NCBI GenBank assembly: GCA_051251855.1
Contig: JBPOGI010000001.1
Coordinates: 576,001-640,000, forward strand
Length of the DNA stretch: 64,000 nt
Source of the DNA: Roseibacillus sp.
GTDB lineage: Bacteria > Verrucomicrobiota > Verrucomicrobiia > Verrucomicrobiales > Akkermansiaceae
Direction of reading: 5' to 3'
In this document: positions 11,045 to 22,816 of the stretch, piece by piece
How the letters are laid out: the number at the start of each line of letters is the position of its first letter
How positions within the stretch are numbered: the first letter of the stretch is position 1
The notes under the pieces: model-generated
Database searches by the model: none
What the model was told of the DNA's origin: nothing
Seen by the model: only the letters and a program-made list of their open reading frames with translations
Made by a program: the position numbers and the translations under genes

Positions 11045-11809
11045 TTATCGGCGGTTCCGGCGTCTCAGCGTGAGAAGTAAGCTCAACGCAGAGAGGCTCA
11101 TAGCCGAAGGTTCTGGTATCGCGGTGTATTCGATGACTGGCCATTCACCCATTTGTCCAGCTTCGCGAACGGTGATTTTATAGGCGTCCCAACCGGCAGC
11201 TAAGCTGTCAGAGCCGTAACTCAAGCGCAGAAAGACGAAGTCTCCGGCACCCGCCCCGCTCGCATAGGCTGTGTTTAGGTAATTTAGGAGTGCCGCATCA
11301 CCTAAGGCATTGGTGTTGTTGTTTGGAGCCCCCACAAATCCCACCGAACTAGCCGGGGTGAGGAAACTCTCCTGGATCAAGGTTGCGCTGCCATCGAAAG
11401 CAGACCCATTGTACCAGTCGCTGATGAGGATCGCAGGGGTTGCACTGGTCCTGACAGCATAGAGATCGAGATCGGTGATCGTGGCATTGCCCATCTCGTG
11501 GACCATCACACCGAGATCAGCGCTGGTAAACGGGTTGGTAACCGCGCCTAGCGACGGCAACTCGAAGGGCAGGACGATCGTGGTCAAACCTGGCCCAAAC
11601 CATTCGCCGGCGTTCGCAGAGAAAAAGCCGTTAGTGTCGGGGTGAACCTGAGGCCAAGGATTCGTAGGAGGAAGGTTGTCGCGAACTTCGAGGAAGCCGT
11701 CATTGGCATCTGAGAAAATGAGCGCGGCTTCTGCTCGGAGAGGAATCAAAGTTGCGGAGATTCCAAACAGGGCCGTCGTTGCCGAGGCAAGTTTTGTTTT
11801 TAGGTTCAT
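11045..11809 (-). CDS. PEP-CTERM sorting-domain surface protein
   Basis: Signal peptide (MNLKTKL...AEA); C-terminus IPEPSAMSLSALSLLLTLRRRNRR. Confidence 0.9.
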   Translation of the reverse strand: MNLKTKLASATTALFGISATLIPLRAEAALIFSDANDGFLEVRDNLPPTNPWPQVHPDTNGFFSANAGEWFGPGLTTIVLPFELPSLGAVTNPFTSADLGVMVHEMGNATITDLDLYAVRTSATPAILISDWYNGSAFDGSATLIQESFLTPASSVGFVGAPNNNTNALGDAALLNYLNTAYASGAGAGDFVFLRLSYGSDSLAAGWDAYKITVREAGQMGEWPVIEYTAIPEPSAMSLSALSLLLTLRRRNRR

Positions 11810-11896
11810 CTTAATTTGGTTGCTGGGTAGAAGAGTTGGGGTGAATGTTTTTTCCAACTTCTTTTAAGATTTTTGGGGGTTTTTAAAGGGATGTCT

Positions 11897-11912
11897 TCCC
11901 TCGATAGAGGGG
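11897..11912. promoter_or_regulatory. Palindromic box TCCCTC-N4-GAGGGG, copy 1 (upstream of the PEP-CTERM gene)
   Basis: tccctcgatagagggg. Confidence 0.7.
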
Positions 11913-11933
11913 TAAGCGCTTGGTTTTCCGCAG

Positions 11934-11968
11934 AAAAAAACGAGCCTTAGGATTTCTCCCAAGACTCG
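11934..11968 (-). terminator. Intrinsic terminator of 11995..15279
   Basis: Minus strand CGAGTCTTGGGA-gaaa-TCCTAAGGCTCG-TTTTTTT. Confidence 0.8.
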
Positions 11969-11994
11969 CTGTGTAGAGGGGTTAAGAATTCGCG

Positions 11995-14900
11995 CTAGGG
12001 AGCGACGAACTCTTCCGCGCGGAAGAACTGTTTAGTGTTCGTTCCTGAGTTGGCGGGAATGCTAATACTAGTCGCCGTGGAGTTGTCAAAGGTGACGCCC
12101 GTTGGAGTGAAGCCAGTCAGGGTGGTGGAGCTGGTGATATGGTAGTTCTTACCACTTTCGGTTCCTGTTACATTCACCACAAAGTTAGAGCCGTTGTAGC
12201 TCACGAGGTCGATATCAAGTCCGTCAGGCAGACCAAGAATGAAGAATTGATCTCCCGCTAAGGCGCTAAAGTCGACAACGCTGGATGCTCCAAGGTTTTC
12301 GGTTCCTACAGGCATGCCTGGGAGCGACTGGTTGGACATGAAATCGTGGCCACCGTTATTGAGTAGGACCATAATTTTCATCGAACCGGAGGAGGCTCCG
12401 ATATCCGCGAGGGCGACAGACAGTTCGACTCCGGTGGTGACGGCAAGGGCTGCCGTTTGGTCGGCTGCAGTGCCTCCACCTTCTTCAAGAATTCCAGCGG
12501 TATTGCTGTTGTTGAGGGCGAAGGACAATGAATCACCATTCACCGTGCCAGTCGCGGTAGTTCCAAAGCCGGTGCCGCTGCCCCCAAAGACATCAACGTA
12601 GCTGTCGAAGGCTGCTGTGCCAATGTCTGCGATATCGGCATCGAATCGAAACCCTTGGCGTACCGTGATTTGATAGTCGGGTGCGAAGCCGATATCGAAC
12701 GTCATGCCGTTTAGGTTAGCGGTAGAATCGTTACCAGCGGCTGTCATCACATTAGTGGTAATGGTATCGTTGGTGTCGAAAAAGAAATCCAGCTTGTTGA
12801 AGTTGTTTTCCAAGTTGCCGGTGACCATCAGGTTGAGCCTTCCGTTGACTACTGAAGCATAGACCGCATCGAGTTGGTTGAAGTTGAATGCCGAGTTGAT
12901 GGTCTGCACTGCACTTGCTGCCGGATAGAGACTGTCTTTGGCTCCATCGATCAGGATGATTCCTGCTGCGGTCGGATTACTTGCGCCATCATTGGGGTCG
13001 AACCCAAAGTTGACTTCCACAAGATCGTCGAAGGTGTCGGAATCGGAGTCTGCGAGAAGAGGATTGGTTGGAGCTCCATCGAAGGTGTTGCCAGTACCAT
13101 CGATTTCAGGTCCATCTTCGATGCCGTCGCCGTCGCTATCGGCGTCACATGGATCCGTCCCAGAGCTATTCACTTCTACATCGTCATTGGCGCCATCTCC
13201 ATCAGTGTCGCTAAGGATTGGGTTTGTGCCTGCGGTCTGCTCTGCCAAGTTATTGAGAGTGTCAGAGTCTCCATTGGCTATTGGATCAGATACTCCAAAG
13301 CCAGCTTCGAAGCTGTCTCTGAGACCGTTGCTATTTGCATCGGCAGGAGCGGTTTGCAGATCGGCCCAGGTCGTAACCACCAAGATGTTGTCCCATTCCG
13401 TGACATCACTGCCGCCAGAGGCGCAGCGAATCGCGGTGAGGTCAAAGGGATTGAAGGCTCCGAAGATATCGGTGTCGTTGATGGGATCGGGTTCCGCGCC
13501 GCTGAGATCGGGATTGAGGTAAACGTCGAGTTCACCAAGCGGGATGTTGACTTTCATGACCACAGTGTTGGTGTCGCCATCGACAAGGAATTTGCCCGAG
13601 CCCGTGTTGTTGACGCCACCCGGCTCTTCATAGCCGAGTTCGTCGGTAGCGGCTTGGATGCCGGGAACACCGATGAAGACTTTTTCCTCGCCATAGCTAA
13701 AGAGGCTCACGCCTGACCACACCGCGCCTGCTGAGCGGGAGATGTCAAATTTCATCCAAATGACGTCGGTCGTTTGGTTGGTTACACCGGGAGAGGCTAG
13801 GATAGCTCCGGTGGCCTCGGAACCGCTTGCGCCTTCGCTAAGCCCGTTGAATTGACGGATGATTCCGCTTTCGCGGGTTTGGAGCTTCTGGCAAAAAATG
13901 TTGCTGTCTCCAAATTGGGAGGTCCAGTCAGATGCCGATCCGGTGTGGCCAGTGAAGGCATCGGGGCTATCGAGGTTATCGAAGTCGAAGCCATCACCAC
14001 CAGCAAGTCCACTCGCATTACCGTCGGGATAGTCGAATCCTTCCAAGCCGATGAAGGTAATGGAACCATTTGAGGTGGGGTCGTCGCCGGCGTTTCCGGT
14101 TTGGGGAAGAGTGCCAACGGCGATTTCGATACCATCGGGGGTTCCTCCGCCATCGGTGTCGGCAAGATTGGGGTCGGTGCTGTGTGTATTGACTTCAGCG
14201 CCGTCAGTGAGTTCGTCGTTATCGCTATCGGGGTCGAGAGGATCGGTGCTATGCATGGTGAGCTCGGGGCCGTCATTGAGACTGTCGTCATCGCTGTCGG
14301 CGTCTTGAGGATCGGTTCCGCCACTGAATCCGGTGACGCCAGTGCCATCAAATTCGGCAATATTGGTAAGACCGTCTGCGTCAGGATTACCGAGAGCGCC
14401 ATTGGGGCCGTCCTTGGCTCCTAGGGAGGTTTCGCCAATGGTTCCGTCGTCGGAATCGTCGAGACCATTTGCAAGTTCAAAGTCGAGAGGCATTCCGTCA
14501 CCATCGGCATCGACGAAATCTTGCAGTCCCACATCACCCGGGTCGGTGGCTACGGTGAGGTCGTCCCAGCTGACGCTTCCACCTGAACCGATTCGGACGC
14601 GGGAGGCCCAGTTGGAGTTGGTGAAAGGAGCGGTGATATCAGCACTGTTTGAAGCACCAGCGGTCCAGTAGTCGGTGACATCGGGATCCACCCACATGCC
14701 GACAAGGTCGTTATCAAAATCGACGACGGTCACAATGGTGTAAGCTTGGTCATCAACAAAGGCGGGAAGGGATCCGGTGAAGGTTCCGTTCTCAGGATCG
14801 GCGTTGGAAATTTCGATAGTAGGAATGTCGTCGGTTCCAGCGGCCCCAAACTTCACTTTTTCGGTTCCAAAGTCGCTGTGCATGATCCATCCCCACTCGG

Positions 14901-15279
14901 CGGTGGAACTTCGAGTCATCTTGACTTTGTAGAAAAATCTGCCAGCAGCTTTGACTGCCCCATTCCCTTCGTCTTCGCCATATTTGCGTTCGTGTGCTCC
15001 ACCGTTAGAAACAACAACACTGTTTCCTCCTAAATCGGTAATGACAGAAGCGGTGCCAAAAGGAGTGGTCCAAAGAGCAGCTCCGATGGCGTTGTTGGTC
15101 TGGTCTTGGGTATCATTGTTCCATTCCCAGCCCGTTCCGTTGGAATCGTTAGGAGGGGTAGTGATGTCACCAGGAGTGCCTTCAAAGTCATCGATACCGA
15201 TGATGTTTCCAGAGAGGGGAAGAGCGAAAATGCCCAATGAAAGCAGGATTAGTTTAGTCGTCGGTTTTCGCAATTGCAT
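11995..15279 (-). CDS. Large secreted acidic protein with a duplicated beta-sandwich-like domain and TSP3-like Ca-binding repeats
   Basis: Signal peptide; many DxDxDG..D..E...TDP repeats; two homologous domains of about 230 aa; C-terminus YHITSSTTL...KQFFRAEE. Confidence 0.75.
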   Translation of the reverse strand: MQLRKPTTKLILLSLGIFALPLSGNIIGIDDFEGTPGDITTPPNDSNGTGWEWNNDTQDQTNNAIGAALWTTPFGTASVITDLGGNSVVVSNGGAHERKYGEDEGNGAVKAAGRFFYKVKMTRSSTAEWGWIMHSDFGTEKVKFGAAGTDDIPTIEISNADPENGTFTGSLPAFVDDQAYTIVTVVDFDNDLVGMWVDPDVTDYWTAGASNSADITAPFTNSNWASRVRIGSGGSVSWDDLTVATDPGDVGLQDFVDADGDGMPLDFELANGLDDSDDGTIGETSLGAKDGPNGALGNPDADGLTNIAEFDGTGVTGFSGGTDPQDADSDDDSLNDGPELTMHSTDPLDPDSDNDELTDGAEVNTHSTDPNLADTDGGGTPDGIEIAVGTLPQTGNAGDDPTSNGSITFIGLEGFDYPDGNASGLAGGDGFDFDNLDSPDAFTGHTGSASDWTSQFGDSNIFCQKLQTRESGIIRQFNGLSEGASGSEATGAILASPGVTNQTTDVIWMKFDISRSAGAVWSGVSLFSYGEEKVFIGVPGIQAATDELGYEEPGGVNNTGSGKFLVDGDTNTVVMKVNIPLGELDVYLNPDLSGAEPDPINDTDIFGAFNPFDLTAIRCASGGSDVTEWDNILVVTTWADLQTAPADANSNGLRDSFEAGFGVSDPIANGDSDTLNNLAEQTAGTNPILSDTDGDGANDDVEVNSSGTDPCDADSDGDGIEDGPEIDGTGNTFDGAPTNPLLADSDSDTFDDLVEVNFGFDPNDGASNPTAAGIILIDGAKDSLYPAASAVQTINSAFNFNQLDAVYASVVNGRLNLMVTGNLENNFNKLDFFFDTNDTITTNVMTAAGNDSTANLNGMTFDIGFAPDYQITVRQGFRFDADIADIGTAAFDSYVDVFGGSGTGFGTTATGTVNGDSLSFALNNSNTAGILEEGGGTAADQTAALAVTTGVELSVALADIGASSGSMKIMVLLNNGGHDFMSNQSLPGMPVGTENLGASSVVDFSALAGDQFFILGLPDGLDIDLVSYNGSNFVVNVTGTESGKNYHITSSTTLTGFTPTGVTFDNSTATSISIPANSGTNTKQFFRAEEFVAP

Positions 15280-15348
15280 GGTTTTTAAGGTTAAAATAGG
15301 GCTAAGGTCCTAGGCTAGAAAGGATGGCAGCACAAGCATTCCTGTCCA

Positions 15349-15364
15349 TCCCTCGATGGAGGGG
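15349..15364. promoter_or_regulatory. Palindromic box, copy 2
   Basis: tccctcgatggagggg. Confidence 0.7.
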
Positions 15365-15377
15365 GGGCTACTCGGCT

Positions 15378-17669
15378 TTATGGTGTAATAGGAGTGACAG
15401 GATGATAGTGCTGGATTTTAGGTTTTTCGAGGATTGCGATTTGTCCTCCGGGCCAGTGGACCGTTATGGTTTCGACCTCTTCATCGTTTGCGAGACCGAA
15501 GTGTTTCTGGGCGGGATGCTGGCACATGAAGGAGTCGCCGCTCACGATAACGGATTCAATGACTCTTTGATTCGTCTTGAGAGAGAGCTTTGCGCCGTTA
15601 GGCGAAGATTCCTTGGATGTTTCGAGGGTCACGCCAATCCAAGGTCGTTTTTCCGCTTCGGGAAGAGTGTTCTGCATGATGAGGAGGGCGGGAGGTTCGA
15701 CGTCAGTCTCGCCATCGTGGAAGAATCCTGAGGTGCCTTCGATCCGACCCACTGCGAGGTCGACGCGTCCATCGAGGTCTAAGTCAGCGGCAATAACGCG
15801 GCGACAATCGAAATCAAATCCGATATCAAGAAGAAACCCGAAGTCTTGGAATCCGATCCCATCTTGATTGATAAGGAGGGGATTGATTTGAAAGCCATCC
15901 CAAGACTGTTCTTCCATTTGGGGAAGGGTCTCAAGATATCCTGAAATGGCGGGGAGCTTAAAGTCTTTCATCACATAGACATCGCGGCACCAGAAGTTCG
16001 AGCAATAGTCGCGTGAGGTTTTTCCTGAGATATGACCGTTGGCGGCATAGATGTCGTGGTCGCCATCGTTATCGAAGTCAGCAGATGCAGAGCCCCAGGT
16101 CCAGCCGGTGCGGGCGACTTGAGGTTCAAATTCGGGAGCTTTATAGCCGCCTTCCTTGCGTCCCAGATACATCCGGTTTCCAAATCCCATCACGCCGCGC
16201 ATTTTGTTATGCTCGGGGTGTTGTTCGGGGTTGGCTTTCATTTGGTCGAGACGTCGGGCAGTGGTGGAGCCCATACCGAGAACATAAAAATCGAGTAGAC
16301 CGTCAGCATCGTAGTCGGCAACGGTGTGCGACATTCCAAAAGAGTATGGATTGCCGACGTAGGAGTCTTCTTGTTCGGAGAATTTTCCTTGGCCGTTATT
16401 GAGGTAGACGTCGACACCGTGAAAATCACTGATCACGAGAAGGTCGAGGTCTTCATCTTGGTCGAGGTCGAGAAAGGATCCCGAATAGGCGCGGCGATAG
16501 CGCTTCTGGGCGAGGCCGGAAGCCTCGGTCCGGTCTTCGAAGGTTCCGGTACCATCGTTGATGAGAAGAGTATTTCCAAAGCCGTCGTTGGCGTCCCAGA
16601 AGGTGTCAGGCATCTTTTCGTAAAGGGATCGCCATTGGCCCACATAAAGGTCGAGGTCGCCATCTTGGTCGCAATCACCTGCGGTGATGAAGGAGGGAAC
16701 ACGCAGTCGGTAGTCGCCAAGTTTGATACGGCGGGGCACTTTTGCGAATTTGCCGCCTTCTTCACCGAACCAGAGAGCGAGGTCACCTTCTTTGGTGTCG
16801 CTGAGCCAATCTAACAGGCCGTCACCATTGAGGTCAGCGGTGAGACCGATGACGGAGTCGAAGAAGAGTCCGCCGGGGTCGACGATAGGTTGAGGCTCAA
16901 ACTGGAAGTTACCTTTGTTCCAGAGGATCTTGTTTGAATTGCCCAAGATGATTTCGGGGAGTTGATCGCCATTGAGATCGTAGACCGATATGGCCCCCAT
17001 GTCGTCGCGTTCGGTGGGGTTGGGATTTCCGCCCTCGATGACCGCTCGGGTGGTGAAGGCGGCAGGTCCGCGTCGCTGCGCGGAAGTCGCTTCTAAAAGA
17101 GTGATGGTGGAGGGCCGAAGTTTTTCCTCTGACTCATCCCATACGATGCGGAGTGTGCCTTTGAACTGGAGGCGTTCGGTTCCTTCCTTACGCGAACCCT
17201 GAAGGTTGAAGGTCACTTCGGAGATCGCTTTTTCTGCTTCGTTGCGCTGGAAAGAACGATGATGCCAGTCGCTGTGGACGAGGGAGTAGCCGGCTTGGCG
17301 GTAGCTTTGGAGAATTTCCGCGAACCCTTCGCAAGAGAGCGTTTCTCCACCGGAGGTGATTTGGCGTGTGGTGATACCTAAGTCGTGGCGTGTGGGAGCG
17401 CCTGCCTTGCCTAGAGTCAAGGTGTCGAAGGGGACGGCGGCGAGGAGTTCCAGTCGTTTGCCAAGAGGAGCTTGTAGAAGCGAGTCCCAGAGGGGAACGA
17501 TACCTTCGAGTTCGATTTCGCGCGCTTCGCTTTCGTTTTCGAAGGCTTCGGCTTCGAGGGAAACAATTTTTTCGATGAGAAGAGCGGGATCAGCGATCTC
17601 GCCGACGGTCACGATGGTTGAGAGAAGGAGCGATGTCGCAAAGAGGGGGAGGCAAGAATGGGTTTTCAC
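15378..17669 (-). CDS. CRTAC1-family protein (FG-GAP/VCBS propeller plus ASPIC/UnbV C-terminus)
   Basis: Repeated D[LY]DxDGxxD motifs, TGWTWGSASADFDNDG..DIYAANGH, C-terminal SFMCQH..HFGL..VHWPGG. Start taken as GTG at 17669 (signal-peptide-like). Confidence 0.85.
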   Translation of the reverse strand: MKTHSCLPLFATSLLLSTIVTVGEIADPALLIEKIVSLEAEAFENESEAREIELEGIVPLWDSLLQAPLGKRLELLAAVPFDTLTLGKAGAPTRHDLGITTRQITSGGETLSCEGFAEILQSYRQAGYSLVHSDWHHRSFQRNEAEKAISEVTFNLQGSRKEGTERLQFKGTLRIVWDESEEKLRPSTITLLEATSAQRRGPAAFTTRAVIEGGNPNPTERDDMGAISVYDLNGDQLPEIILGNSNKILWNKGNFQFEPQPIVDPGGLFFDSVIGLTADLNGDGLLDWLSDTKEGDLALWFGEEGGKFAKVPRRIKLGDYRLRVPSFITAGDCDQDGDLDLYVGQWRSLYEKMPDTFWDANDGFGNTLLINDGTGTFEDRTEASGLAQKRYRRAYSGSFLDLDQDEDLDLLVISDFHGVDVYLNNGQGKFSEQEDSYVGNPYSFGMSHTVADYDADGLLDFYVLGMGSTTARRLDQMKANPEQHPEHNKMRGVMGFGNRMYLGRKEGGYKAPEFEPQVARTGWTWGSASADFDNDGDHDIYAANGHISGKTSRDYCSNFWCRDVYVMKDFKLPAISGYLETLPQMEEQSWDGFQINPLLINQDGIGFQDFGFLLDIGFDFDCRRVIAADLDLDGRVDLAVGRIEGTSGFFHDGETDVEPPALLIMQNTLPEAEKRPWIGVTLETSKESSPNGAKLSLKTNQRVIESVIVSGDSFMCQHPAQKHFGLANDEEVETITVHWPGGQIAILEKPKIQHYHPVTPITP

Positions 17670-17729
17670 GCACGGAGAAGAGTGAAGTTGAAAGAGCGCT
17701 CTGCAAGTTGAAAATTGGCGACTTCTTTC

Positions 17730-17745
17730 TCCCTCAGATGAGGGG
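17730..17745. promoter_or_regulatory. Palindromic box, copy 3 (between the divergent CRTAC1 and kinase genes)
   Basis: tccctcagatgagggg. Confidence 0.7.
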
Positions 17746-17832
17746 GGATAGAGTCGCGAGGAGGCGCTAAAGTATGTAACCCGGTAAATCAAACTCCGAG
17801 GTGCGTTCGTTTTTCAATGGACTTTTGAACGT

Positions 17833-20067
17833 GTGAACTTGAACTTGAGAACTTTGAAAATCACCGTGACAATTGCGTTCTGGTTCACTTTGCAAGCGAT
17901 GCTCGTGGGAGTTGAGCAGTCCGAAGATCCCGTGCTCACAACGGCGATGGATGTGATCTCGTTAACGGGTGAGGAGGCCGCTCAGTCGATTCCCGTCTCA
18001 CTCACTGGCGTAGTGACTGTTTCGTATCCTCATTGGGGGGGGCGATTTTTCGTGCAGGATGAGACGAGTGGTATCTTTGTCGATTCATTAGAGGATGAGA
18101 GACCGATGCCGGGTGATCGGATTAGCTTGAGCGGGCTGAGTTATCCCGGAGGGTTTGCTCCTTCAGTTTTTAGCGCGCAATGGAAAAAAACTGAGGAGGA
18201 GCCATTGCCTGTGGCGCGAGTTGTTCCGATCGAGGTGCTGCTTTCGGGAGCCGAAGATAGCCAGCGGGTGGAAGTTACTGGAGTGGTTCGGACGGCTACC
18301 TTGAATGAGAACGAGCTATCGCTGTATCTCGTTTCCGATGGTCATCGTTTGCAGGCTTTGCTGCCACCCGCCACGGTGACTGAGCCTCAATCTCTAATTG
18401 GAGCCACCGTGCGGGTGAGGGGGACGGCTGCGGCAACGTTCAATGGTGAGTCGCGTCAGGTGATTTCGATGAATCTTTTCGTGCCAGTGTCGGATGATTT
18501 CCTCGTGGTTCAGCGGGAGAAAGTGAATCCTTTGGAAAAAGAGGTGCTCTTGATTGGGGCGCTAGGGAAATATAGTCGAGCGATTTTACCTCATGATCGG
18601 GTGCGCTTGCGGGGAGTAGTGACTTATCAACAGTTGGGGGAAGAGCTGTTTATCCAAGACGAAACAGGAGGCTTGCATGTGCGTAGCTCTCAATTGATTG
18701 ATGTCGAGCGGGGTGCGCTGGTTGAGGTGGTGGGGTTTCCTGGGGCAGAGGACAACCTGCCGGTCTTGCAGGATGCTTCCATTCGTTTGATTGAGGGTTC
18801 GAAGGTTCCGGAGGCGTTTCGCTTTCAGTTGGAGGAGTTGAAAAAGAGCCATCGGTTTGGACAGTTGGTTTCATTAAAAGCAATCTTGTTGGATCGTTCA
18901 GTGAGAATGGCGGCTGAAGGTTCGGAAGGGCAATTGGAAGAGAGGGTGACTTTGATGTTAGAAGCGGAGGACGAGGTCTTTACTGCAGATGGTTCTTTTG
19001 CTGGCGCAGGGACGAGCTTTTTGAACCTAGAGGTGGGGAGTCAGGTGAACGTGGAGGGAATTTGCTCTCTCGATATTCGTGATGATGGCGAAGTGACGAG
19101 CTTCCAGATTCTCTTGCCCGACGCGGAGAGTGTAACGGTGCTCGTGAGGCCGAGCTGGTTGAATGCGCGGAGGTTGAAGTATGGGCTTGGTATTTTGGGA
19201 GGAGTGGTTTTGTTATTTTTAATTTGGGCTGCAACTTTGGCTCGAAAGAATCAGATGTTGAAGCGCTCCATTGAGGGGCGAGCCAGAGCGCAAGCGGAGT
19301 TGCAGAAGGTCAATGAGACTTTGGATTTACGGGTACAAGAGCGGACGGCTCAGTTGAAGTCCGAGATGGATGAGAGAAAGAAAGCGGAGGTGAGCTTTAA
19401 GGCGACCTTGGCGGAACGAACGCGACTTGCGCAAGAGTTGCACGATACTACGGAGCAAAGTTTGGCCGGAATCGGGTTGCAGTTGGATACCTCCGCCAAA
19501 CTTCTTCCGAATGACTTGGAGGAGGGATTGAAGCCATTGGATTTGGCGCGAACGTTGATCGGGCAGAGTCATCAGGACCTTAGACGTTCGATTTGGAATC
19601 TGCGCTCGCGTGAGCTGGAAGAGTTTAACTTCTCCGATGCTGTTCGCATGAGTGTGCGTGAGGTCTTGTTGGGCACTGGAATCGAGTTTGAGAAGGTTGA
19701 GCAGGGCGTTGCGCGGTCTCTTCCTGAGGTGGTGGAGGAAAATTTGCTACGGGTGGTTCGAGAGGTCGCTACCAACGCTGTGAAGCATGCCGACGCTTCG
19801 AAGTTAGAAGTGACATTGTCTTATCGAGAAGGTGAGGTTGAGCTCACGGTGAGTGATGATGGGCGAGGCTTTTCTTCGGAGAGTGCGCCTGGTGCGAAGG
19901 AAGGTCACTTTGGATTGTTAGGTATTTCTGAGCGAGTGAAGAGGTTCGATGGAATCCTTGTTCTCGATTCGAAGGTGGGGCAGGGCACCACGGTGCGAGT
20001 GACGGTTTCAACTGCGCGTTTGACGAGTGATGTGGCGACCGCGCAGACTAACGGAATGAAATCATGA
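17833..20067 (+). CDS. Sensor histidine kinase (HisKA_3 + HATPase) with a large duplicated extracytoplasmic region
   Basis: ERTRLAQELHDT H-box, E..TNAVKHA, DDGRGF, GHFGLLGISER, GQGTTV; a TM segment before the coiled coil. Confidence 0.92.
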   Translation: MNLNLRTLKITVTIAFWFTLQAMLVGVEQSEDPVLTTAMDVISLTGEEAAQSIPVSLTGVVTVSYPHWGGRFFVQDETSGIFVDSLEDERPMPGDRISLSGLSYPGGFAPSVFSAQWKKTEEEPLPVARVVPIEVLLSGAEDSQRVEVTGVVRTATLNENELSLYLVSDGHRLQALLPPATVTEPQSLIGATVRVRGTAAATFNGESRQVISMNLFVPVSDDFLVVQREKVNPLEKEVLLIGALGKYSRAILPHDRVRLRGVVTYQQLGEELFIQDETGGLHVRSSQLIDVERGALVEVVGFPGAEDNLPVLQDASIRLIEGSKVPEAFRFQLEELKKSHRFGQLVSLKAILLDRSVRMAAEGSEGQLEERVTLMLEAEDEVFTADGSFAGAGTSFLNLEVGSQVNVEGICSLDIRDDGEVTSFQILLPDAESVTVLVRPSWLNARRLKYGLGILGGVVLLFLIWAATLARKNQMLKRSIEGRARAQAELQKVNETLDLRVQERTAQLKSEMDERKKAEVSFKATLAERTRLAQELHDTTEQSLAGIGLQLDTSAKLLPNDLEEGLKPLDLARTLIGQSHQDLRRSIWNLRSRELEEFNFSDAVRMSVREVLLGTGIEFEKVEQGVARSLPEVVEENLLRVVREVATNAVKHADASKLEVTLSYREGEVELTVSDDGRGFSSESAPGAKEGHFGLLGISERVKRFDGILVLDSKVGQGTTVRVTVSTARLTSDVATAQTNGMKS

Positions 20068-20693
20068 GTAAGGAGAAGACGATCAAGGTGCTGATTGCCG
20101 ATGACCACTATGTGGTGCGCATGGGCCTAGCGGCGATGGTGAAGACGGAGTCGGACATGGAAGTGGTGGGGGAAGCGGAAGACGGGAGGGAGGCGATCCG
20201 GCTCTATGAGCGGTATCAACCTGATATCTTGCTGATGGACTCTCGGATGCCGGTCTTGAATGGGGTGGAGACGACGATTGAGATTTTAAAGAAGTATCCA
20301 AAGGCGCGCGTCCTCATGATTTCGGCCTACGATGGTGATGCCGATATTCAGCGTGCTTTGGAGGCGGGAGTGCAGGGCTATGTTCTCAAGCAATCAGCGG
20401 GGGACCGTTTGTTGCCTGCTATTCGAGCGGTGGCGGCAGGGAAGAAGTGGCTCTCGCGGGCGGTGGCGGGAGAGCTGGCGTTGAGAAAATCTTACGAACA
20501 ACTCACCCCGCGTGAACTAGATGTGCTGAAGGAGATATCACTGGGGTTGGCGAACAAACAAATTGCGGATTCCTTGGGTATCTCTGAGCATACGGTGAAG
20601 GACCATGTCAAAAATGTGCTCGCTAAATTGCGGGTCTCCGACCGCACCGAGGCAGTCGCGGTGGGAGTGAAGCGAGGCTTTATTCATCTTTAA
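20064..20693 (+). CDS. NarL/LuxR-family response regulator
   Basis: IADDH..PDILLMD receiver; LTPRELDVL..GLANKQIA..LGISEHTVKDHV HTH; 4-bp overlap with the kinase gene. Confidence 0.95.
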   Translation: MSKEKTIKVLIADDHYVVRMGLAAMVKTESDMEVVGEAEDGREAIRLYERYQPDILLMDSRMPVLNGVETTIEILKKYPKARVLMISAYDGDADIQRALEAGVQGYVLKQSAGDRLLPAIRAVAAGKKWLSRAVAGELALRKSYEQLTPRELDVLKEISLGLANKQIADSLGISEHTVKDHVKNVLAKLRVSDRTEAVAVGVKRGFIHL

Positions 20694-22635
20694 TGGAGGT
20701 CTGTGCAGGATCCTTTGCTTCGGGATAGCTGAGACCATAGCCGACGGGATAGCGCAGGCGGCTCTGCTCGTGAGTCGAGGCTGGCACTTCCTTCATCGAG
20801 GCGGGCCAAGCGTAGGAGAGCTTTCCGGTGAACGGCTTCTTTGCTAACAGGACATCGGCGACTCCTGCTCCTTCGCTGCCAGGTAACCAAGCAGCGACGA
20901 TGGCGTCTGCTTGCGAGCGGGCGGCATCTAGAACGAGGGGGCGGCCGGAGATGATGAGGAGTGCTACTTTTGAACCGGTTGCGTGAGCGTTCGCGACAAG
21001 GTCTTGATCGGATTGGCTGAGGGTGATGTTTTCGCGATCGCCCTTCATCTCGGCATAGGGATCTTCACCCACGACCACAAGGATGAGGTCGGCACCTTCA
21101 CTGCCATTGACGTTGGGGGAGTGGGTGACTTTGGTTTCAGGAGAAACTCCGTTTTGGAGGCCTTGTAGAATGGTGGAGCCGCCATTGACGGTTGGGCCGC
21201 GGCCTCCTTGCCAACTGACGGTCCAGCCACCGCATTGCATGCCAACGTCGCTGGCTGCGGAGCCTGCCACGTGGAGATGGCGGCAGTCGTTGGTAATGGG
21301 GAGAAGATTGTCTTTGTTTTTGAGAAGGACCAAGGATTCCGAAACGGCTTGTCGGGCAACGGCGCGGTGTTTTTCGGAGCCGAACTCTTTCTGGAGTTCT
21401 TCGTTGGGCCAGAGTTGGGGGCCTTTTTCCATCATGCCTGCCGCAAATTTGACGCGCAGGATGCGAGTGACGGCGTCGTCGATACGAGACATGGGCACAC
21501 GACCTTCCTGAACAAGTTCTTGAAGGAAGGTGATGAATTTTTTGTAGTGGTCGGTGACCATGACCATGTCCATGCCGGCGTTGATGGAGATTTCGATGCA
21601 GCGCTTATAGTTAGGCGTCTTGACCTGACCGGCGGCATTGTTGCTTTCGACTTGTTGAAACCCACCTTCAGGCCAGACGAGTTGGTCGATAGCGTTGTAG
21701 TCCGAGATGAGCATGCCCTCGAAGCCGAGCTGTTCCTTGAGGACGTAGGTTAGGAGGTATTTGTTGCCGGAGAGTTTGATGCCGTTCCAACTAGAGTAGG
21801 AGGGCATAATAGTGGCGACGCCGGCATCGATGGCGGGGATGTAAGGAGTGATGTGGAGGCGACGGAGTTCTTCCTCGCTGAGTTGGGTGTTGCCTTGATC
21901 GAGTTTGGATTCGCCTCGGGTGGAATCGTAGGTTGTGCCGCCATCGGCGACCCAGTGTTTAGCGCAAGCCACGACTGAGTAAGGGGAGGCGAGGTCGTCT
22001 CCTTGCAGTCCTTTGACGGCGGCTTCGCTATAGAGGGAGACCACTTCGGGGTCTTCGGAGAAGCCTTCGTAGGCGCGCCCCCAGCGGATGTCGCGCGGGA
22101 CGGTGAGGCAGGGAGCAAAGGTCCATTGAATGCCGGTGGCTCGTATTTCGCGGGCAGTGATGCGGCCAATTTCTCTCACGAGGGCAGGGTTGCGGGTGCA
22201 GCCGAGGCCGATGTTGTGAGGAAAGATGACGGCGTCGGGGAGGTTGCTATGGCCGTGCACGGCATCGACGCCGTAGATGAGCGGGATGCCGAGCCGGGTC
22301 TTGAGCGCTCTTTCTTGGCAATCTCGATAGAGGTTGGACCAGTTGGCGAGGCTGTTGCCTGATTTGGGGTCAGAGCTGCCTCCGCTGAGAATGGAGCCGA
22401 GGGCGAGGCGCTCAATATTGTCGAAGTCCTTGACCGAATTCAGGTCGGGCTGGGTCATTTGACCGACCTTTTCGGCGAGAGTCATTTCGGCGACGAGTTC
22501 CTTGATTTTGTCATCGTGAGCGGTGAGCCATGCTGGAGAAGCTGCTGGGACACTTAATGAGAGAGAGACGGAGAGCGAGAGCGCGACAAGGTGGATTTGG
22601 AAGCGAGAAAATCGAAATTGAATTGTTGATTGCAT
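20680..22635 (-). CDS. GH3 beta-glucosidase / exo-1,3(1,4)-beta-glucanase-like, secreted
   Basis: MTLAEKVGQMTQ, YGVDAVHGH, FPHNIGLG, RWGRAYE, AKHWVADGGT, ISDY (nucleophile), VVGEDPYAE, AWLPGSEG. Confidence 0.92.
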   Translation of the reverse strand: MQSTIQFRFSRFQIHLVALSLSVSLSLSVPAASPAWLTAHDDKIKELVAEMTLAEKVGQMTQPDLNSVKDFDNIERLALGSILSGGSSDPKSGNSLANWSNLYRDCQERALKTRLGIPLIYGVDAVHGHSNLPDAVIFPHNIGLGCTRNPALVREIGRITAREIRATGIQWTFAPCLTVPRDIRWGRAYEGFSEDPEVVSLYSEAAVKGLQGDDLASPYSVVACAKHWVADGGTTYDSTRGESKLDQGNTQLSEEELRRLHITPYIPAIDAGVATIMPSYSSWNGIKLSGNKYLLTYVLKEQLGFEGMLISDYNAIDQLVWPEGGFQQVESNNAAGQVKTPNYKRCIEISINAGMDMVMVTDHYKKFITFLQELVQEGRVPMSRIDDAVTRILRVKFAAGMMEKGPQLWPNEELQKEFGSEKHRAVARQAVSESLVLLKNKDNLLPITNDCRHLHVAGSAASDVGMQCGGWTVSWQGGRGPTVNGGSTILQGLQNGVSPETKVTHSPNVNGSEGADLILVVVGEDPYAEMKGDRENITLSQSDQDLVANAHATGSKVALLIISGRPLVLDAARSQADAIVAAWLPGSEGAGVADVLLAKKPFTGKLSYAWPASMKEVPASTHEQSRLRYPVGYGLSYPEAKDPAQTSIKDE

Positions 22636-22702
22636 ATTATTTGGCTCTCAGTGGGAGCTGGGAAATTTCGTGGAGTGTGAAGTAGAATTTGTTTGTTGAA
22701 AA

Positions 22703-22718
22703 TCCCCACAAGGAGGGG
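22703..22718. promoter_or_regulatory. Palindromic box, copy 4 (degenerate left arm; upstream of GH3)
   Basis: tccccacaaggagggg. Confidence 0.6.
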
Positions 22719-22816
22719 GATAGGCTCCTATTTGAACTTTAGTGCGTGAGGAAGGTGGGAGATCGTCTGGATTGCGATCTTGTAAGATGGGGGCGAAGGT
22801 GTTCGTCTTGGGGAGT

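Follow-up and report, generated by a model that had tools for sequence, protein, structure and literature searches.

The palindromic box and the genes around it

We analysed a 64,000-nucleotide stretch of a Roseibacillus sp. genome (contig JBPOGI010000001.1, positions 576,001 to 640,000; hereafter the window), in which a short palindrome, CCCCTC-N4-GAGGGA (the box; palindromic core CCCTC-N4-GAGGG), recurs upstream of genes that surround a two-component system. Gene identities were assigned with Pfam and NCBIfam. Three minus-strand genes are predicted targets of the box. They encode a 254-aa secreted protein with a signal peptide and a PEP-CTERM-like tail (IPEPS...RRRNRR; 11045..11809), a 1094-aa secreted protein with TSP3-type repeats (11995..15279), for which the databases return weak repeat matches only, and a 763-aa CRTAC1-like FG-GAP/ASPIC-UnbV protein (15378..17669). 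The internal ATG 11809 and GTG 17669 were chosen as starts because a signal-peptide-like sequence follows each. The tail of the 254-aa protein (residues 230-251) scores 16.1 bits against PF07589, under the cut-off of 20.7, and its motif is visible by eye. On the plus strand, the gene for a 744-aa sensor histidine kinase (17833..20067) overlaps by 4 bp the gene for a 209-aa NarL/FixJ-type response regulator (20064..20693), the proposed binder of the box. These are followed on the minus strand by a GH3 beta-glucosidase gene (20680..22635; Pfam GH3 N and C domains), a possible target through a weak site, and by a sulfatase gene. The nearest NCBIfam models to the GH3 protein are an exo-beta-1,3/1,6-glucosidase and BglX, both under the cut-off.

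The initial annotation had described a four-copy box forming a local regulon. All four strings are present, at 11897, 15349, 17730 and 22703; the first three are exact, while the fourth carries two mismatches. Box 1 (11897..11912, minus strand; CCCCTCTATCGAGGGA in the sense strand, CCCCTC-TATC-GAGGGA) is intergenic and stands 88 bp before the ATG of the PEP-CTERM gene at 11809. It lies downstream of an intrinsic terminator (11939..11970, minus strand) that follows the 1094-aa gene and has a 14-pair stem and a T-run, which bears out the terminator expected between these two genes. Box 2 (15349..15364, minus strand; CCCCTCCATCGAGGGA, CCCCTC-CATC-GAGGGA) precedes the ATG of the 1094-aa gene at 15279 by 70 bp. 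Box 3 (17730..17745; CCCCTC-ATCT-GAGGGA in the sense of the minus-strand genes) sits in a 163-bp divergent region, 61 bp from the GTG of the CRTAC1-like gene at 17669 and 88 bp from the kinase gene. At site 4, a candidate weak or half site (22703..22718, minus strand; CCCCTCCTTGTGGGGA in the sense strand, CCCCTC-CTTG-TGGGGA), the left arm is intact and both core mismatches fall in the right arm, TGGGG, so that it is no palindrome of the kind seen in boxes 1-3. Read on the plus strand, it is TCCCCACAAGGAGGGG, two mismatches from TCCCTC-N4-GAGGGG. The GH3 ATG at 22635 is 68 bp away and the sulfatase ORF 24 bp away, so that all four distances from site to start are as first described. A further putative left-arm half-site, itself a two-mismatch match, was found 69 bp upstream of box 1 (11966..11981, minus strand; sense strand TTAACCCCTCTA...). 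It has the string TTA(A)CCCCTCTA in common with box 1, and this string has only 3 copies in the genome. The resemblance of one arm to the NarL heptamer (TACCCCT) was seen at box 1 and at neither of the other two exact local boxes, and is hence not a conserved feature. No Shine-Dalgarno-like sequence was seen before the four start codons examined.

We scanned the whole window genome (4.96 Mb, 91.5% coding) for the box. The exact 16-mer has 4 copies, 3 of them inside a 5.85-kb span in the window, and none of the 4 is inside a real gene; the same pattern read backwards gave 1. The palindromic core occurs at 10 places, of which 6 are inside long ORFs and the other 4 are the three local boxes and one site on contig C7. 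A simulation gave P = 5e-4 for 3 of 10 core places falling within 5.85 kb. Looser matches proved to be background: 22 of 24 one-mismatch matches genome-wide are coding, and matches with at most two mismatches number 13 in the window versus 7.8 expected. Since two-mismatch matches, site 4's own level, number 491 genome-wide (57 of them intergenic), site 4 is only suggestive as a regulator site, and it is its position that speaks for it. Three sites of the proposed local regulon are thus firm, and the fourth is not significant by itself. G-run variants of the right arm like that of site 4 do occupy the expected places in other homologous loci.

The box is neither a dispersed repeat of the repetitive extragenic palindromic (REP) type nor a terminator. 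Dispersed repeats have many scattered copies; here we counted 4 exact and 10 core copies, 6 of the latter coding, so the REP-like scatter that could have undone the regulon proposal was not seen. The boxes are absent from a terminator scan and lack a T-run, and nearby only 11939-11970 qualifies as an intrinsic terminator. No extended repeat unit was found around the boxes.

The response regulator has the features of the NarL/FixJ class: a receiver domain, a GerE helix-turn-helix (HTH) domain and a HisKA_3-type kinase encoded alongside. Its receiver matches PF00072 (E = 1.4e-26), with D13, D14, D59 and K109 invariant in a six-sequence alignment of response regulators, and its HTH matches PF00196 (E = 7.7e-20, residues 146-199) and aligns with the NarL C-terminal domain chains 1je8, 1zg1 and 1zg5. 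The recognition helix reads SEHTVKDHVKN. NarL (NF007935) is the best NCBIfam match, and because its score of 163 bits falls below the cut-off of 250 the protein is not NarL itself. The closest solved structures are VraR, NarL and DevR, with full-length alignment to VraR and NarL.

The kinase consists of a signal/transmembrane segment, a periplasmic domain of ~430 aa, a second transmembrane segment, HisKA_3 and HATPase_c (Pfam and sequence). The sensor domain (window 17914-19197, kinase residues 28-455) matches no Pfam family. An AlphaFold2 model built on a 25-sequence alignment (pLDDT 87.6) is all-beta, with tandem beta-barrels, and its best solved matches are tandem arrays of the oligonucleotide/oligosaccharide-binding (OB) fold (HIN, RPA, CST and POT1), at low TM-scores of 0.2-0.4. 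As modelled, such an architecture would seem unusual in a histidine kinase. To judge from the neighbouring genes, the ligand would be glucan-derived.

Conservation of the box with the kinase and regulator genes

A search of 400 other genomes of the family, with the sensor domain alone as query, yielded a close kinase/regulator orthologue in one, a Haloferula metagenome-assembled genome (MAG; G220) and thus a different genus. An order-level kinase search (401 genomes) returned no further close orthologue, nor did a search of 401 genomes with the PEP-CTERM protein. Identities to the window proteins are 50% for the kinase, 67% for the regulator, 55.9% for the 1094-aa protein and 69.7% for the PEP-CTERM protein. 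The core occurs 11 times in the Haloferula genome, 5 times inside a 13.4-kb span in the orthologous locus, and these 5 are all intergenic and in one orientation (simulated P = 2e-5 for at least 4 in such a span). They precede the 1094-aa orthologue, a GH16-CBM6-CBM35 gene, the kinase-regulator operon (divergent from the gene of a 1601-aa surface protein), the PEP-CTERM orthologue, as in the window, and a 289-aa gene with a weak PEP-CTERM tail. The other 6 matches comprise 4 in long open frames, 1 in a hairpin between convergent ORFs and 1 that is ambiguous. The footprint in relatives that the initial annotation had called for is clearest at the promoter of the 1094-aa gene: between the two genomes the box, a CCTTCTAG block ~25 nt downstream of it and, to within 1 nt, the distance from box to ATG are kept, and the rest has diverged. 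The only regulatory genes common to the two loci are those of the kinase and the regulator.

Closer to the window, the material was less informative. In the 40 nearest genomes the best kinase match has 34% identity, and 19 loci scanned around homologues held no intergenic box. With the kinase alone as query, no relative was found in public genome contigs and one 24%-identical match in metagenome contigs. Contigs over the locus itself from four metagenome runs, in which it has a low share, are short and near-identical to the window, with too little variation for a footprint: the one over box 3 has 2 differences, both outside the box, and the one over site 4 has 1, again outside. A pattern scan of 201 family genomes found at least one exact 16-mer in 62. 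We considered those in genera g33, g3 and g11 as footprints and rejected them as coincidence, as every one falls within a conserved ORF and none has a related regulator in its vicinity.

With an alignment of the two kinases as query, 36 loci (670 kb) were obtained from Verrucomicrobiota MAGs, at kinase identities of 33-50%. Fifteen of these hold 29 exact core boxes between them. Over the same loci, four of five arm-permuted control palindromes give no match and the fifth gives 2, and changing the spacer to N2, N3, N5 or N6 gives 0, 0, 1 and 1. Most of the boxes lie either 130-230 bp ahead of where the kinase match begins, the commonest position, or just after the regulator gene; a crude gene call places 26 of the 29 between genes. 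Pfam was run on 30 genes adjoining them. GH5 genes are the largest class (9, several with CBM6/CBM35), 8 genes match no Pfam family, and large CBM6 proteins, giant Ig-like proteins and Laminin_G_3 proteins account for 2 each. The remainder are single cases: GH3, a PEP-CTERM protein, a TonB-receptor plug, a second kinase, a pilin-like protein, a TPR protein and a helicase. Compared across these genomes, a 20-bp palindrome travels with the HisKA_3 kinase/NarL-family regulator pair across Verrucomicrobiota, and is found upstream both of the operon that encodes the pair and of nearby genes for secreted glucanases and surface proteins. Four of the retrieved contigs (L139, L142, L157 and L164) carry a verrucomicrobial-type locus under the labels of Bathyarchaeota, Solirubrobacterales, Bifidobacterium or Actinomycetes MAGs, and are probably mis-binned or mislabelled.

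The presence of the box covaries with the recognition helix of the adjacent regulator. In all 15 loci with an exact box the helix contains [H/Y]-T-x-K-[D/G], and none of the 14 loci with N at the first of these positions has one. Two loci with H at this position but A after the lysine also lack it. Five further H/Y loci have one-mismatch boxes, with a G-run arm, in the same places. The box is likewise absent next to the nearest box-less homologues within the family and next to the window genome's own paralogue. Maximum-likelihood analysis of the regulators places the box-less N-type proteins in two distinct nested clades, one of them supported at 100/100; the helix change has therefore coincided with box loss on at least two occasions. 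Of the two covarying positions, the second corresponds in the alignment to the residue after the conserved lysine of the NarL recognition helix, a residue that contacts bases in NarL. Two box-less loci, L138 and L153, have in common a GTTTC-N7-GAAAC palindrome ~91 bp before the kinase match, which is a candidate for an alternative operator of that regulator subfamily.

Consensus, promoter geometry and competing explanations

Symmetrised over 33 exact boxes, the consensus is a 20-bp palindrome, CAY-CCCTC-nWWn-GAGGG-RTG, whose centre is 77% A/T. Both arms are invariant over the 33 sites, so there are no compensatory changes, and the flanking Y and R positions assort independently (T.A 9, C.G 5, T.G 11, C.A 8), which fits two half-sites that are read independently rather than a stem. 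The NarL operator has been described as two inverted 7-base elements 2 bp apart, the 7-2-7 arrangement (PMC7419079). The 16-bp length of the box is compatible with this, and its sequence, with conserved CCCTC and GAGGG around a 4-nt A/T-rich centre, does not follow the 7-2-7 pattern.

The spacing between the box and a -10-like hexamer, 22-23 nt, is rigid in most cases. The initial annotation had pointed to CATCCT, CAACTT and CACACT downstream of three sites, and all of these exist. CATCCT (15326-15321) starts 23 nt behind box 2 and CACACT 24 nt behind site 4, while box 3 has CAACTT (17710-17705) at offset 20 in the direction of the CRTAC1-like gene and TAAAGT (17768-17773) at 23 nt in the direction of the kinase gene. 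Behind box 1, AAAAAT (11874-11869) likewise starts at 23 nt. Over the window and Haloferula genomes, 7 of 9 sites have an nAnnnT that begins 22-24 nt past the 16-mer, and an eighth has one at offset 20; taken by itself this is only suggestive. In the loci outside these two genomes, 23 of 31 box-to-gene directions have an nAnnnT that begins at offset 23 or 24, versus a background of 0.065 per offset (binomial P = 1e-14, a value inflated by the relatedness of the loci), and many of these hexamers are good TAnnnT elements. The -35 region immediately behind the box is poor, mostly TGnnnn, and begins with the TG of the operator itself. If transcription starts ~7 nt after the hexamer, this geometry implies that the box is centred at about -42.5 to -43.5 and abuts the -35 region, in line with the class II-like arrangement initially proposed. 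NarL is described as activating the yeaR and ogt promoters from 7-2-7 sites that abut the -35 element and are centred at -44.5 (PMC7419079). An enrichment analysis of hexamers in 1538 upstream regions returned A/T-rich words only and no usable promoter consensus.

We consider it likely that the response regulator at 20064-20693 recognises the box as its operator and, through it, activates a regulon that includes its own operon. This is the binder named in the initial annotation, and four lines of sequence comparison support it: the box is inherited together with the kinase and regulator genes, is linked to them family-wide, covaries with the recognition helix and holds a fixed position in the promoter. 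The palindromic 20-bp consensus and the covariation between helix and box suggest that the protein binds the inverted repeat as a dimer. In the mechanism we propose, the periplasmic sensor of the kinase would detect a glucan-derived signal and the kinase would phosphorylate the regulator. A regulator dimer would then bind the box, one half-site per monomer, ~43 bp upstream of the transcription start, and, abutting the poor -35, would recruit RNA polymerase. The genes switched on would be those for the PEP-CTERM, 1094-aa and CRTAC1-like proteins, the kinase-regulator operon (positive autoregulation), probably the remote GH30 gene on contig C7 (see below) and perhaps GH3.

The evidence for binding would serve equally well if the regulator were a repressor or a dual regulator rather than a class II-type activator. 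NarL itself is described as repressing some promoters (PMC7419079), and a site that overlaps the -35 can occlude RNA polymerase. Such a role is nevertheless unlikely, as the -35 behind the box is poor and forms part of the operator, and rigid spacing from box to -10 (23 of 31) is typical of activator-dependent promoters and needless for occlusion. It is still less probable that another transcription factor, encoded elsewhere, binds the box and that the link to the two-component system is indirect. One exact copy does lie on another contig, beside an extracytoplasmic function (ECF) sigma and ChrR-like anti-sigma pair. Against this, the box follows the kinase and regulator genes through very different neighbourhoods and lineages and is gone exactly where the recognition helix changes; no other regulator gene is common to the window and Haloferula loci; and a palindrome with a half-site spacing of 9 bp suits a GerE-type dimer.

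The arms could also pair in RNA, as a 5-6 bp G+C-rich stem with a 4-nt loop, and all local copies share one orientation relative to the genes, as would be expected of a hairpin in 5′ untranslated regions that acts in stability, processing or attenuation. This is very improbable given the invariant arms, the 8 C.A mismatches at the Y/R flanks, and the missing T-run and absence of the boxes from the terminator scan. Moreover, box 3, like many of its homologues, serves a divergent gene pair, and the conserved -10-like hexamer is downstream of the box, which therefore should not be transcribed. As for a chance cluster or a small dispersed repeat, of the REP type or a miniature inverted-repeat transposable element (MITE), short G+C-rich palindromes do arise by chance, as the 62 of 201 family genomes with at least one 16-mer and the identical boxes inside conserved coding genes of genus g33 illustrate. 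This explanation is effectively refuted by the presence of only 4 exact genome copies, by their clustering (P = 5e-4, and lower in the Haloferula genome), by the 29 boxes beside homologous regulators versus 0-2 in controls, and by the lack of an extended repeat unit.

Several points weigh against activation by the adjacent regulator as we propose it. It is from the position of the box that activation, rather than repression, would follow. Where a box faces the kinase gene in the other loci, only about half of these directions show a canonical -10, and autoregulation may accordingly be less than universal. The gene calls in the other loci are crude (longest ORFs) and place 3 of the 29 boxes inside called ORFs, and the homologous loci are interrelated, so that the counts overstate their independence. 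No alternative palindrome emerged from a search of the box-less subfamilies, which leaves the specificity switch only half documented. Finally, no -10-like hexamer stands at the canonical offset behind the remote GH30 site, where TAATTT begins at 34, and the 6 coding core matches imply ~0.6 intergenic ones, so that one chance intergenic copy is not unlikely.

Relation to known systems and further sites

The chances that the GH30 site is a genuine member of the regulon are about even. This fourth exact 16-mer (region C7:415121-415175) stands 60 bp ahead of a GH30 gene, for which an endo-beta-1,6-glucanase is the nearest NCBIfam model; together with the likeness of the GH3 protein to exo-beta-1,3/1,6-glucosidases, this fits a beta-glucan theme. 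A CCCCTCATCT half-site ~46 bp upstream of the GH30 box is identical to the left arm and spacer of box 3, and the ECF sigma and ChrR-like anti-sigma genes are directly upstream of the site. Another possible regulon member is a 1240-aa gene with a pilin-like N-terminus on a further contig, 255 bp downstream of an intergenic one-mismatch variant of the core (C8:156748, CCCTC-CAAT-GGGGG).

As a kind of system, this is an ordinary, textbook autoregulated two-component regulon. Like NarX/NarL of E. coli, it pairs a HisKA_3 kinase with a Response_reg/GerE regulator, and NarL is both the best NCBIfam match of the regulator and among its closest structures. The predicted operator is, as for NarL, an inverted repeat for a dimer, here with a 16-bp core; its centre near -43 is close to the -44.5 of NarL sites that abut the -35, and extra single half-sites occur nearby, as is also described for NarL (PMC7419079). 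Unlike in NarL sites, the half-site is CAYCCCTC, whose C-run is more distant from the dyad. The sensor differs from that of NarX in being a ~430-aa all-beta periplasmic domain, and the regulon is made up of glucanases and surface proteins instead of respiration genes. VraR/LiaR and DevR (DosR), the closest and third-closest solved relatives of the regulator (E = 2e-43 and 4e-32), share its two-domain architecture, are autoregulated and bind palindromes of ~20 bp; their signals (cell-envelope stress and hypoxia) and regulons are unrelated.

The system also resembles the hybrid two-component and SusR-like regulators of polysaccharide utilisation loci (PULs) in Bacteroidota, in that a periplasm-facing sensor is encoded in a locus of carbohydrate-active enzymes (CAZymes) and presumably activates the adjacent genes. 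The CAZyme-type targets over the box-bearing loci are GH5, GH3, GH16, GH30 and CBM6/CBM35 proteins. Unlike those regulators, the kinase and regulator are split, with a GerE output, and not fused with an AraC-type output; there are no SusC/SusD genes here, the sensor fold is another one, and it is the neighbouring genes that suggest glycan sensing. Tentatively, the family could be a widespread verrucomicrobial counterpart of the Bacteroidota PUL regulators, with a sensor that binds beta-glucan oligosaccharides directly and a regulator that then switches on a portable module of secreted glucanases (GH5, GH3, GH16 and GH30, with CBM6/35), exosortase-sorted PEP-CTERM proteins and giant surface proteins. 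If so, glycan sensing would be coupled to remodelling of the cell surface.

In the literature returned by full-text searches we found no description of the box, of such an operator or of a glucan-linked regulon of this kind, and none of an operator or regulon for Verrucomicrobiota CAZyme loci. The apparent novelty lies in the operator, in the rigidity of its promoter geometry and in its association, across Verrucomicrobiota, with genes for glucanases and surface proteins. Both in the sea and in soil, this phylum is a major degrader of polysaccharides from algae and plants. With an operator defined by sequence, tied to a specific regulator family and set in a predictable promoter geometry, glucan-utilisation regulons could be predicted from genomes alone. 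The operator also singles out specific target genes, among them those for PEP-CTERM proteins and for large surface proteins whose role is unknown, and, with one regulator and one 20-bp site, provides a simple test system.

The window genome has a paralogous module on contig C1 (22000-41000), with genes for a GH3 protein (57% identity), a histidine kinase, a response regulator (42%), a 222-aa PEP-CTERM protein and an 867-aa PATR-repeat protein. Its GH3 gene is preceded by two copies of ACGAACTTCG. A look-alike ~123 bp before its PEP-CTERM gene, CCCTC-ATC-GAGGA, is degenerate and was excluded from the counts, and a CGGAG-N4-CTCCC repeat in the same locus was put down to chance, all instances being coding and the genome holding 28 copies. 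The core of the window's PEP-CTERM protein (~residues 77-230) recurs in open frames of 900-3000 aa in many related genomes, so that this small protein and giant surface proteins have a module in common. Finally, GC skew is positive in every 2-kb bin of the window (0.09-0.32), irrespective of gene strand.

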